Source of the DNA: a virus
Taxonomy: Duplodnaviria; Heunggongvirae; Uroviricota; Caudoviricetes
IMG/VR virus record: IMGVR_UViG_3300009826_000019
Location: 1-43,940 of that record
Length of the DNA stretch: 43,940 nt
Direction: 5' to 3' (one strand)
How positions within the stretch are numbered: the stretch's first letter is position 1; each line of letters starts with the position of its first letter. Below the pieces are notes generated by a model. It ran no database searches. It was not told the origin of the DNA and saw nothing but the letters and a program-made list of their open reading frames with translations. Position numbers and translations under genes: made by a program. Positions 27,621-40,821 of this stretch are shown one piece after another.

Positions 27621-27649
27621 AGATCGGAATAATATTAAACCTATATATT
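27621..27649 (+). promoter_or_regulatory. ATCG-N17-TATATT element (outlier copy)
   Basis: AGATCG GAATAATATTAAACCTA TATATT, ending 7 nt before ATG 27657. Confidence 0.7.
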
Positions 27650-27656
27650 AAGCGAT

Positions 27657-28184
27657 ATGATAAACATAAATAAAGTTAATACAACAATGTTGGAACGTAG
27701 TGACGCAGATAATGAAGAAATTAATGCAACACTATTTAAACGCAGTGACCTGGATTGGGAAAATTGGTTTCCACTCGAAGCAGAAGAAACCGGTCTCCCA
27801 TTCAGAATTTGGGTACGCGCCGGTAACGCAATAGAAAACCCAAACGAAATTCCAACAATGCGCTGTGAAAAAGTCCAAGACACGTTTTTCATAGTAACAT
27901 TGGAAGATAACCCAAGAGTTCTCGGACATAACCTGGAAACACTCGAAGAAGAAGTGAATAATAATGATATTCAAATAAACGAGGAAATATCATTTGAAGA
28001 TTGGGGTAGCGATATGGAAAGTTACCTAATGTCATTTATCGGTTGGTACAGAAGAAACCACGAAACAACACCGCAACACCCAAACTTCCCATTCCCAAAA
28101 GATAAACAATGGGTAGAATGGATGCAACTGTTCATGGAATTTCTATCCCAAGATACCGATAAACGAATGGAAATAAATTACTAA
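27657..28184 (+). CDS. Hypothetical protein
   Basis: 175-aa acidic ORF. Confidence 0.7.
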   Translation: MININKVNTTMLERSDADNEEINATLFKRSDLDWENWFPLEAEETGLPFRIWVRAGNAIENPNEIPTMRCEKVQDTFFIVTLEDNPRVLGHNLETLEEEVNNNDIQINEEISFEDWGSDMESYLMSFIGWYRRNHETTPQHPNFPFPKDKQWVEWMQLFMEFLSQDTDKRMEINY

Positions 28185-30575: not shown

Positions 30576-31151
30576 ATGACAAAAAAACAATTTGGGCAAA
30601 AGAAATTTTATACTATCGTCTCATGGGGCGGCGAAACATACGACTTCGGACTACAATCCGTAGACATGGTAAATGCACGTATCGGTAGATTTGCAAAAGA
30701 AAAAGCAAATATCAAAATGTGGAAATCAACCAACAAAAAAGGATATCTCCACGAACTTGAATATCTACACAAAGAAGGTATTATGACCAAAATGTACCCC
30801 TCATTCCCCCAAATTGATAAATATATATACGGTCCCCTGGCGCAATGGTCAGCGCAGGTCACTCATAATGACAAGGTTTCAGGTTCGAGTCCTGAGGGGA
30901 CCACAATCGAACTTACTATTGGTCAAGAACTCATGAACGAATTTTATGATAGTGGGAATAATGGACTCATACCGAATATACACAAATTTGCTGAATTTTA
31001 TGATAATAAAATCTTGAATACTGACTACGTTCTCGAATTAGTACGATACTATATGAAAAAAAAATACCACCCGCATTGTACACTAATAGCAAACCAAAAC
31101 GTGGTGGAAATCCTTGAAGGTATAAAAACCAATGTGAAAAAAGAAGATTAA
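30576..31151 (+). CDS. Hypothetical protein whose reading frame runs through a tRNA gene
   Basis: 191-aa ORF; codons 86-110 coincide with the tRNA. Confidence 0.55.
   Translation: MTKKQFGQKKFYTIVSWGGETYDFGLQSVDMVNARIGRFAKEKANIKMWKSTNKKGYLHELEYLHKEGIMTKMYPSFPQIDKYIYGPLAQWSAQVTHNDKVSGSSPEGTTIELTIGQELMNEFYDSGNNGLIPNIHKFAEFYDNKILNTDYVLELVRYYMKKKYHPHCTLIANQNVVEILEGIKTNVKKED
30831..30903 (+). tRNA. tRNA with CAT anticodon, Ile2(lysidine)-like; elongator Met not excluded
   Basis: GGTCCCC/GGGGACC acceptor stem, GCGC/GCGC D stem, GTCA-CTCATAA-TGAC anticodon arm (G27.A43 mismatch), TCAGG-TTCGAGT-CCTGA T arm, A73, no encoded CCA. G1:C72 rules out initiator; C4:G69 and C5:G68 as in TilS substrates. Confidence 0.9.
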
Positions 31152-35276: not shown

Positions 35277-35483
35277 ATGGATATAGAGGAAATTTTAGAT
35301 GAGGTAAGAGACACGAAATATGTTTGTGAATATTGTCAAGGGGTAAATGTAATGCAACGCGGTTGGTTCGACCCCAACACTGGCGAGATATTTAGTAACG
35401 GACAAAACGACCGCCGAAGCGAAGGTTGGTGTAATGATTGTCAAAAAAATGTTTTCATAATTGAGAACTGTGCATCGGAATAA
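35277..35483 (+). CDS. Zinc-ribbon-like protein (CxxC...WCxxC)
   Basis: CEYC...WCNDC; its last codons (ASE*) lie inside element 35474. Confidence 0.75.
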   Translation: MDIEEILDEVRDTKYVCEYCQGVNVMQRGWFDPNTGEIFSNGQNDRRSEGWCNDCQKNVFIIENCASE

Positions 35484-35505
35484 CATATAAATATTATATT
35501 TAAAG

Positions 35506-35670
35506 CATAAGTAACAAGGTAAGGTTCGGACAATAGTTTGACCGTTTGAGTTGAATAATAAAACTTTCAAAGTAAGGGACTTTTAGACTAATAAAACTTT
35601 TTAAGTAAGGTTTAACACAAAAGCGAAAACGAGTTGTATTAAATTGAATAATAAAACCTTGTTACTTTTT
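35506..35670 (+). ncRNA. Candidate structured small RNA in an ORF-less cassette
   Basis: No ATG between 35501 and 35686. 12-bp terminal stem AAGTAACAAGGT(35509-20)/ACCTTGTTACTT(35656-67) followed by a T-run; internal 22-nt repeat pair. Confidence 0.5.
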
Positions 35671-35742
35671 CATAAAACTTTGCTGTGCATCGGATTAACA
35701 TTCTAAAATTATATTTAGAATATAATCAATAATATCAGTAAA

Positions 35743-36084
35743 ATGAAAATAAGTAACAATATAGAGTTTAACCCGATAAGACAAACAATTTTAGTCAATG
35801 GGGAAAAAATGAGTTGGGTGCGCCGCCAGAATGGTAGGGATAGACTTTGCAACCAATTAAGCACAAAGGAAAGTCAATTATTAGAGTTTCTTTTGCAAAA
35901 CAAAAACAATGTGGTTAGCGTTGAAAATACCTTACAAACATTATGGGTAGACGTTAATTTTAACAACAAGCGAAGCGCAGACGTTTATATAAACTTTCTC
36001 CGCAACTTGTTAGGCAAGTGGATAAAGATAGAAACAGTTTATGGTGGGGGCTGGAAACTAACCACCATAACGACAAAAATATAA
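35743..36084 (+). CDS. Stand-alone OmpR/PhoB-type winged-helix DNA-binding domain (Trans_reg_C; RprY-like)
   Basis: LSTKESQLLEFLLQNKNNVVS...LW...RSADVYINFLRNLL...IETVYGGGWKL; no receiver domain. Confidence 0.85.
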   Translation: MKISNNIEFNPIRQTILVNGEKMSWVRRQNGRDRLCNQLSTKESQLLEFLLQNKNNVVSVENTLQTLWVDVNFNNKRSADVYINFLRNLLGKWIKIETVYGGGWKLTTITTKI

Positions 36085-37478: not shown

Positions 37479-37655
37479 GTGCCATTTATTAAATGTTAAA
37501 ATAGTATAAAAAATTTTATTAACCTATTTTAACAATTTAATTTATACTATTTTAACACTCTATTTTTGTTACAAATATATACTATTTTTGTAACAAGCAT
37601 CGGAATAATATGTTAAAATTATATTTAATATTATAATCAATAAAACAATAACACA

Positions 37656-38264: not shown

Positions 38265-38325
38265 TAGCATCGGAATAACATTAAGATATTATATTTGATA
38301 GTATAACAATAATAAAAATAATACA

Positions 38326-39382: not shown

Positions 39383-39794
39383 GTTTACGGCTATTTATAT
39401 TCAGTAATAACATTTGGCATATCATTTGAATAACATTGTGAATTTCGCCAAGCCCCACGAAACACAGACCAACGGAGTCACCGTTTCAAATGTGGATACG
39501 CGCTTACAGAAAAACACAAATAAGACCTCAAATAAACGTTAAAATGATATAACTCAATTTAATAGGACAAAAACCTATATATTTTTTTTTGCTTCGTTAT
39601 AATGTAAATATGACGAATATTTTTTGTTTCTATTAAATGTTAAAATAGGTTAAATTGGTTTCTCAATTATAAAATGTTAAAATAGTTTAAATAATATTTT
39701 TATACTATTTTAACATTTAAAGATTATCCCCCATAGCATCGGAATAACATTTTACTTTTATATTAGATAGTATAATCAATTAAAATTAAATAAT

Positions 39795-40406: not shown

Positions 40407-40557
40407 GTGGTTGTATTAAATGTTAAAATAGGTTAAAATAATAGCATCCCATAAAATGTTAAAATAGTATAAATAATATTATTAAACTATTTTAACATTA
40501 TATTATAACGAACATCCGAAATGATATTAAAATGATATTCGGAATAATATTATAATG

Positions 40558-40571
40558 TACTCAAATGAGTA
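40558..40571. repeat. Palindrome TACTCAAATGAGTA, copy 5
   Basis: Located in the ORF-less 40346-40760 island. Confidence 0.9.
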
Positions 40572-40821
40572 TGCAGAATAAAATTTTAAATGCTATTTTT
40601 ATTAAATGTTAAAATAGTAAAAAATTTTATACCCTCAACACATCACAATCATATTTTCCTATCATTTGCCGATAATTCTAATGATATTTTGTATATATAT
40701 CATTATCATTATATTAAAATGATATTCAAAAAATAATTAGATACACAAAAATCTCAGATTTGCATCGGAATAACATTTTCATATTATATTTAATATTATA
40801 ATCAATAATAATTTAAAAGAT

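Follow-up and report, generated by a model that had tools for sequence, protein, structure and literature searches.

The window analyzed in this study comprises the first 43.9 kb (43,940 nt) of a 107,940-base virus record, IMGVR_UViG_3300009826_000019, and contains at 35472-35670 of the plus strand a unit that has a promoter box but no open reading frame (ORF). We tentatively propose that this ORF-less unit specifies a functional non-coding RNA (ncRNA), an explanation that we prefer while giving it somewhat less than an even chance. The unit has no ORF, a normal box, exceptional pairing between its two ends, local repeats and an unstructured interior; promoter activity, a start site, termination at a U-run and a function of the RNA are what we infer for it. 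The sequencing runs that carry the region are all termite-gut metagenomes, and among those listed are DNA runs only and none of RNA. The record is a 108-kb piece of an uncultivated termite-gut jumbo phage, the host lineage of which is probably the Bacteroidota.

The unit is embedded in an array of small genes on the plus strand, extending from about 32.9 kb to 70 kb, in which each gene, or group of up to four genes, is preceded by a conserved promoter box. The consensus of this box is GCATCGGAATAAyAT, followed by 7 variable bases, TTATATT and then a weaker (G)TATAA block. We counted 60 boxes across the 108-kb record, and their information profile has two strong blocks (0 to +12 and +19 to +26, counted from the box start) with weak conservation beyond. 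The box of the ORF-less unit (35472-35508, plus strand) reads GCATCGGAATAACAT, 7 nt, TTATATT and a weakly conserved (G)yATAA block. It has no mismatch to the 15-nt core and ranks 28th out of 60 by leave-one-out weight-matrix score, i.e., at the median and with no decay. The complete promoter element that an earlier note on this DNA had described is indeed present (35472-35500).

For 59 out of the 60 boxes, an ATG at +34 to +79 opens an ORF, and the box at 35474 is the sole exception. Three apparent exceptions among the 60 were inspected by eye, and in each of them the ATG opens a plausible ORF. The first plus-strand ATG after the box at 35474 lies at 35743, which is 269 nt from the box start and corresponds to the start of the gene of the next unit; the earlier note had recognized this ATG-free stretch but had put it at only ~185 nt. 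All six frames are interrupted between 35500 and 35690, and the plus-strand frames contain 7-14 stops each from 35484 to 35745, nearly all of them TAA. The longest open stretch in the unit has 33 codons, with only TTG or ATT as possible starts. Recoding of stop codons (TAG/TGA) was considered and rejected, given that the stops are nearly all TAA and that there is no ATG. The body of the unit has a GC content of 27%, compared to 37.5 +/- 4.3% in coding windows of the array, 1.4% of which are that low. The same 259-nt gap was left empty by gene callers in independent assemblies. With no coding frame, a non-coding composition and an intact box, the description of the region as an ORF-less cassette was borne out. 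Two marks of a small RNA (sRNA) unit are found here, namely the promoter type of the neighboring genes (recognized by sequence, with a perfect 15-nt core and TTATATT) and the lack of a protein-coding frame (no ATG for 269 nt, blocked frames and non-coding composition).

The region behind the box also differs from that of the other units. The array leaders have a GC content of 14.5%, and from +38 to +57 they are nearly free of G (0-2 G out of 60 at almost every position) and ~60% A, a composition that fits the Shine-Dalgarno-independent initiation of Bacteroidota. The ORF-less unit, unlike these leaders, has six G at +38 to +57, plus one at +37.

The two ends of the unit are complementary to each other. 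The 5' arm (AAGTAACAAGGT, 35509-35520) is the perfect complement of the 3' arm (ACCTTGTTACTT, 35656-35667), and the duplex of this terminal clamp has a computed energy of -17.7 to -18.4 kcal/mol. Together with a run of five T (35666-35670), the 3' arm forms a putative long-range terminator (35656-35670). The perfect 12-bp stem and a T-run after it had both been proposed before; the stem was confirmed, whereas the T-run, although present, has only five T, two of which lie inside the helix, and is followed by CAT. We compared the end pairing of all units by setting, for each unit, 32 bases from its predicted transcript start against the 45 bases preceding the next box. The ORF-less unit reaches -18.4 kcal/mol versus -9.2 kcal/mol for the runner-up, while 2652 mismatched control pairs have a mean of -5.3 kcal/mol (standard deviation 2.3) with none at -17, making the clamp a 5.7-standard-deviation outlier. 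A perfect inverted repeat of at least 12 bp was found in 13 out of 1000 dinucleotide shuffles of 35501-35686. The 44-kb window contains about three perfect 12-bp inverted repeats with arms within 250 nt, and therefore the stem alone is unremarkable in a blind scan; it is given the ORF-less unit that the clamp stands out. A local terminator hairpin is missing from this unit, which has the long-range helix and the T-run instead. The T-run ends 18 nt upstream of the next box, and the T-runs of the neighbors' hairpin terminators lie 15-23 nt before theirs.

Three copies of a repeat are located between the arms or reach into them. Repeat unit 1 (35553-35577, 25 nt) consists of an A-rich, leader-like head (AATAATAAAAC) and a tail (AAGTAAGG), repeat unit 2 (35586-35610, 25 nt) is 88% identical to it, and repeat unit 3 (35639-35660) shares the head of unit 1 (19/22) with a tail that runs into the 3' arm. 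At a spacing of 33 nt, units 1 and 2 agree at 22 of 25 positions, whereas the 8-nt spacers that follow match at 0 of 8, which indicates modules with spacers and not a decayed tandem duplication. The two 22-nt repeats of the earlier note are real and extend to 25 nt. Its recurring ATAAAAC[CT]TT was also recovered, at 35558, 35591, 35651 and 35672, the last of these being a fourth copy of the 10-nt core (ATAAAACTTT, 35672-35681) located outside the predicted RNA and just before the next box. Nine copies of ATAAAACYTT exist on both strands of the 108 kb, and four of them lie here within 124 nt. A direct repeat of at least 14 nt (the observed one is a 14-mer) was found in 1 out of 1000 dinucleotide shuffles of 35501-35686. 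Three further units (43529, 56794 and 59886) carry the head AATAATAAAAC in their leaders, so that the repeat units look like leaders without a start codon. Units 1 and 2 each contain an 11-bp palindrome, and a 7-bp hairpin (35523-35543) is the sole interior element kept in the centroid structure. We also observed a 10-bp hairpin at 35611-35643, the stem of which is fully paired on the minus strand (one pair being G-U) but contains a C.A mismatch on the plus strand. Owing to this hairpin, the minus strand of the element folds with a z-score of -3.8, and no minus-strand promoter box is found nearby.

In the mechanism that we propose, the standard promoter box (35472-35508) would drive an A/U-rich ncRNA of ~164 nt (~35507-35670), in which the perfect 12-bp helix would join the first and last bases, followed by a short U-run. 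This long-range helix would most likely act both as the terminator of the unit and as a guard of the two RNA ends, and it may also stop read-through from the upstream 68-aa gene. The clamp would close a 135-nt loop without stable structure, presenting two full 25-nt units and one partial unit, whose heads (AAUAAUAAAAC) resemble the A-rich leaders of phage mRNAs but have no start codon. Made along with the other units, the RNA could serve as a single-stranded bait titrating a sequence-binding factor, which may be a host or phage RNA-binding protein or a nuclease. We prefer this bait mechanism since it accounts best for a loop that bears repeats, lacks structure and is held by a protective clamp. 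A more specific version, in which an abundant RNA, shielded from exonucleases by its clamp, would use its start-codon-less leader copies to bait a host factor that acts against the phage leaders by attacking or silencing them, such as a defense nuclease or a translational repressor, seems improbable to us.

The earlier note had interpreted the region as an end-paired RNA of ~160 nt with internal repeats, acting early as an anti-defense or sponge RNA. An end-paired RNA unit of this size is likely, its closing stem is significant and its repeats are local, but the interior folds like shuffled sequence and the anti-defense decoy role found no support. Rfam 15 gave no match for the region even at E<=10, and nothing in the window beyond a tRNA reached the Rfam gathering thresholds. 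An exact-pattern scan of 185,579 species genomes with the 22-nt unit yielded three single matches and no arrays. The comparison with type III antitoxins was likewise negative, with no Rfam match and a downstream gene that is not a toxin but a Trans_reg_C protein without a PADLOC family match. A sponge role would nevertheless be compatible with the unstructured, repeat-bearing loop.

Bacteroidota promoters have a -7 element, TAnnTTTG, which the second block of the box, TAnnTT(T), resembles. Judging from the box geometry and the ATGs of other units, transcription would start near +33 (35507), some 6-7 nt behind this block. Such a start places the blocks at -33 to -21, which is the upstream-element position in Bacteroidota promoters, and at -13 to -7. 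Two other units have their ATG at +34 and +46, arguing against a start much after +33. A weak box at 27623-27660 of the window is followed by an ATG at +34 that opens a 175-aa protein, the mRNA of which would be leaderless if the start site is +33. The middle promoters of phage T4 have a phage activator site in place of the -35 element (PMC3016281). By analogy, the box suggests a combination of a host sigma factor and a phage activator site, like the MotA-dependent promoters of T4.

The gene upstream of the unit (35277-35483, plus strand) encodes a cysteine-rich orphan protein of 68 aa. Its stop codon falls within the promoter box of the ORF-less unit and it has no terminator of its own. The protein matched only itself in a collection of 5.8 billion protein clusters and has no Pfam family. 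Downstream, the promoter box and A-rich leader of the next unit (35687-35742) precede a gene (35743-36084, plus strand) for a receiver-less, OmpR/PhoB-type winged-helix DNA-binding protein of 113 aa. This protein is assigned to Pfam Trans_reg_C with an E-value of 1.3e-13 and 51.2 bits (cut-off 26.2); it is also an orphan, matching only itself in the same collection, and searches of IMG/VR with the flanking proteins gave no match. The winged-helix protein might recognize the repeats in their DNA form.

Elsewhere in the array, two groups of boxes (at record positions 38269, 41366 and 44770, and at 49169, 49530 and 51681) are identical even in their variable spacers, which points to frequent gene conversion or duplication among the units. 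The genome, with an overall GC content of ~33%, has further non-coding gaps of 150-450 nt. In other non-coding gaps of the array, at 37494-37557, 39638-39715, 40421-40607 and 32885 of the window, TGTTAAAATAG is clustered in both orientations. These clusters build long imperfect inverted repeats and are a second family of candidate operators, which the winged-helix protein may bind. The sole element reported by ARAGORN is a tRNA at 30831.

Searches for relatives returned little. The body of the unit has no paralogue in the 108 kb by blastn or tblastx, and a mobile element was rejected since no second copy of the body exists there. A decayed copy of a neighboring gene was rejected as well, as the alignment is no better than that of shuffles (208 out of 300 score as well for the upstream gene and 174 out of 500 for the downstream gene, an 11-mer shared with the latter being at chance level). 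The promoter-box pattern had no match in IMG/VR. In metagenome contigs it matched 35 loci, once each and mostly in one unrelated human-gut sequence, which we consider chance matches. Blastn of 1.4 kb against 50,697 phage records gave no match at an E-value of 1e-5, and the element alone gave three short chance matches at an E-value of 1. A pattern search for relatives with the palindrome TACTCAAATGAGTA returned 108 mostly single chance matches, and nhmmer with the element against 151 fetched loci found nothing below an E-value of 3. No strain variants were seen, as contigs from four termite-gut runs and from two short assemblies match the window without a single difference.

Some further matches concern the arms of the clamp. 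An 18-mer from the 5' arm matches three IMG/VR loci. At one of these, the match extends to 24 nt of exact identity between the stretch 35503-35526 (AAGCATAAGTAACAAGGTAAGGTT) and an unrelated IMG/VR contig (703-726, minus strand), where it directly follows a terminator and lies in a 5' untranslated region, ~70 nt before an ATG, with no wider similarity; the chance expectation for such a match is ~1e-3. In addition, GTAACAAGGTAA (35511-35522, 5' arm) equals positions 1497-1508 of Escherichia coli 16S rRNA (rrsH alignment), in a universally conserved strand between helices 44 and 45 beside the decoding site, and the 3' arm (35656-35665) is antisense to positions 1497-1506. About 3% of such windows are expected to share a 12-mer with an rRNA of 1.5 kb, and the match is therefore probably due to chance. 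As a weaker reading, the clamp could mimic this segment of 16S rRNA. No 16S rRNA was found in three metagenome-assembled genomes. Antisense pairing with the downstream start codon was also considered and rejected: the 3' arm pairs with it at 16 of 17 bases, but the energy of -13.7 kcal/mol is unexceptional among 447 start regions (best -17.4).

A number of observations weigh against a functional RNA from this unit and have to be set beside the alternatives. For RNA from this promoter to contain the clamp, transcription has to start no later than ~35509, and the start site is one that we infer. With a later start, behind the weak TATAA block (~+44), the transcript would lack part of the 5' arm, and the clamp would then form only in read-through from the upstream gene; since the 68-aa gene ends within the box and has no terminator, the clamp would be its first termination signal in any case. 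As an intrinsic terminator the clamp is atypical, with a loop of 135 nt and only three U after the helix. The 135-nt interior is no more structured than shuffles (z-score of +0.35, empty centroid), and the RNA as a whole reaches a z-score of only -2.1, owing to the clamp. The empty Rfam search points in the same direction, as do the orphan flanks, the box without relatives and the identical assemblies. The unit might instead be an empty relic of promoter-mediated recombination or local duplication, i.e., a box in front of DNA without a gene, giving an RNA without a selected role, which we judge to be rather unlikely but a serious contender. The boxes at 35472 and 33865 agree at 38 out of 39 positions, variable spacer included, with the identity ending at +37. 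Moreover, TTTTCATAA, 7 nt and CTGTGCATCGG are common upstream of the boxes at 35474 and 35689, at the same spacing of 215 nt, whereas other boxes carry ATAGCATCGG in place of this shared tail. These box identities are signs of recent promoter-mediated recombination, which would also fit an accidentally empty unit. The stretches 35452-35486 and 35667-35701 share TTTTCATAA and CTGTG in the frame ending at the TAA of the box, and these shared 35-nt upstream tails are what is left of a local duplication that took in the end of the 68-aa gene. Groups of identical boxes in other places likewise speak for frequent exchange, further gaps of 150-450 nt without coding sequence are tolerated in the genome, and in T4-type phages crossovers have been mapped between the -10 element and the ATG of PeSL cassettes (PMC2839356). 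A relic, however, would be expected neither to have a perfect 12-bp end clamp that is a 5.7-standard-deviation outlier nor 25-nt modules at 88% identity beside unrelated spacers. In addition, its promoter box has not decayed, and no gene residue was detected in the body by blastn or tblastx (108 kb) or by shuffle-calibrated alignment to both neighbors.

The repeats could also act at the DNA level, as an operator array whose ATAAAACYTT cores and two 11-bp palindromes would be bound by the adjacent winged-helix protein for autoregulation of its own promoter, a possibility that we consider improbable, though less so than the two discussed below. It agrees with the confident assignment of the downstream gene to Trans_reg_C without a receiver, with a motif that is confined to this spot, as for an autoregulatory site, and with the location of four cores within 124 nt upstream of the box of that gene. 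The last core lies 8-17 nt before this box and beyond the predicted 3' end of the RNA, a position that fits a role in DNA better than one in RNA. Proteins of the OmpR/PhoB family usually recognize tandem half-sites with a phasing of 10-11 bp. Here the cores are spaced 33, 60 and 21 bp apart; the first and last of these distances come close to whole helical turns, but 60 bp is out of phase and no sub-repeat of 10-11 bp was seen. An operator would furthermore leave the extra promoter box and the end clamp unexplained, and the TGTTAAAATAG clusters are an equally good candidate target for the winged-helix protein. It appears very unlikely that the unit encodes a hydrophobic micro-peptide of 15-22 residues with a non-ATG start (ATT at 35641, TTG at 35644 or TTG at 35659, up to the TAA at 35704). 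In its favor are the 33 open codons of the frame and the leader-like AATAATAAAAC ahead of the TTG at 35659, but all other units use ATG, the frame crosses the core of the next promoter box, the composition is non-coding, no gene caller reports a gene in any assembly and only the last 60 nt would be used, leaving the rest unexplained. Equally remote is the possibility of a replication origin like oriF/oriG of T4, primed by transcription: the promoter would fire into A+T-rich DNA that opens readily, and the transcript would persist as an R-loop and prime DNA synthesis. The gene-less promoter does face a stretch of 27% GC with direct and inverted repeats; this content is nevertheless only modestly below the ~33% of the genome, the site has no GC-skew feature, and the RNA clamp and U-run favor release of the transcript over a persistent hybrid.

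A functional ncRNA from an ORF-less unit, our preferred explanation, would have counterparts in other jumbo phages. Eleven sRNAs mapped in phage 201phi2-1, three of them intergenic, come from short ORF-less units that run from a promoter to a terminator (PMC11512511). The intergenic sRNAs of 201phi2-1 and phiKZ (PMC11512511, PMC8244752) resemble our case in that they belong to jumbo phages with many near-identical promoters, and that an ORF-less unit of <250 nt is located among protein-coding units with a termination signal, a putative one in our case, directly after it. Experiments detected those sRNAs, and one of them is conserved, together with its fold, across genera, whereas the present unit is an orphan with an unstructured interior. 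They also come from phages of Pseudomonas hosts with another type of promoter, while the host here is probably a member of the Bacteroidota. The RNA anti-CRISPRs (Racrs) are likewise small phage ncRNAs with their own promoter that act as decoys (PMC10651486), the role proposed here. Racrs are solitary copies of the CRISPR repeat of the host, whereas the units found here are 22-25 nt long, form at most a 4-bp A-U hairpin and matched no array in the exact-pattern scan of bacterial genomes. CRISPR repeats are longer and form a stable stem-loop, which these units do not.

Type III toxin-antitoxin systems contain ToxI-type antitoxin RNA repeats, of which phages can carry a pseudo-ToxI version. The order of promoter, short RNA repeats, terminator (here a putative one) and downstream gene is the same, with a period near 33-36 nt. 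However, the ORF-less unit has two full 25-nt units with unrelated 8-nt spacers and no head-to-tail array of ~34-36 nt, and the gene downstream encodes a winged-helix regulator instead of an endoribonuclease of the ToxN/AbiQ type. The CsrB/RsmZ sponges also present several copies of a short motif in single-stranded form within an ncRNA; this is a comparison of how they work only, as the present unit has no GGA-in-loop motifs, far fewer sites and no sequence relation to them. Finally, the PeSL cassettes of T4-type phages combine sigma-70 promoters with a local stem-loop (PMC2839356). They are similar in that dozens of repeated promoter-plus-terminator signals are found among small orphan genes and serve as recombination points, but differ in that the box described here is non-canonical and that the stem spans the whole unit with no local hairpin. 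The kind of unit is already known, and this one is an orphan in which an unusual clamp around the whole unit stands where a local terminator hairpin would be expected.

The mapping of small ncRNAs in lytic and jumbo phages has, to our knowledge, only just begun, with almost none of known function, and we know of no small ncRNA described for giant phages of gut Bacteroidota. As the evidence comes from one sequence, the immediate value of the finding is modest. The array nonetheless offers a natural experiment with about sixty near-identical promoter units, exactly one of which would have an RNA in place of a gene. If the unit is a relic, it records how units are left empty by promoter-mediated shuffling. 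Should the RNA prove real and functional, gene arrays of this kind would also deliver RNA effectors, in this case from a short and easily synthesized element, and if it baits a host factor with its leader copies, it would represent a new class of decoy RNA in phages of Bacteroidota.

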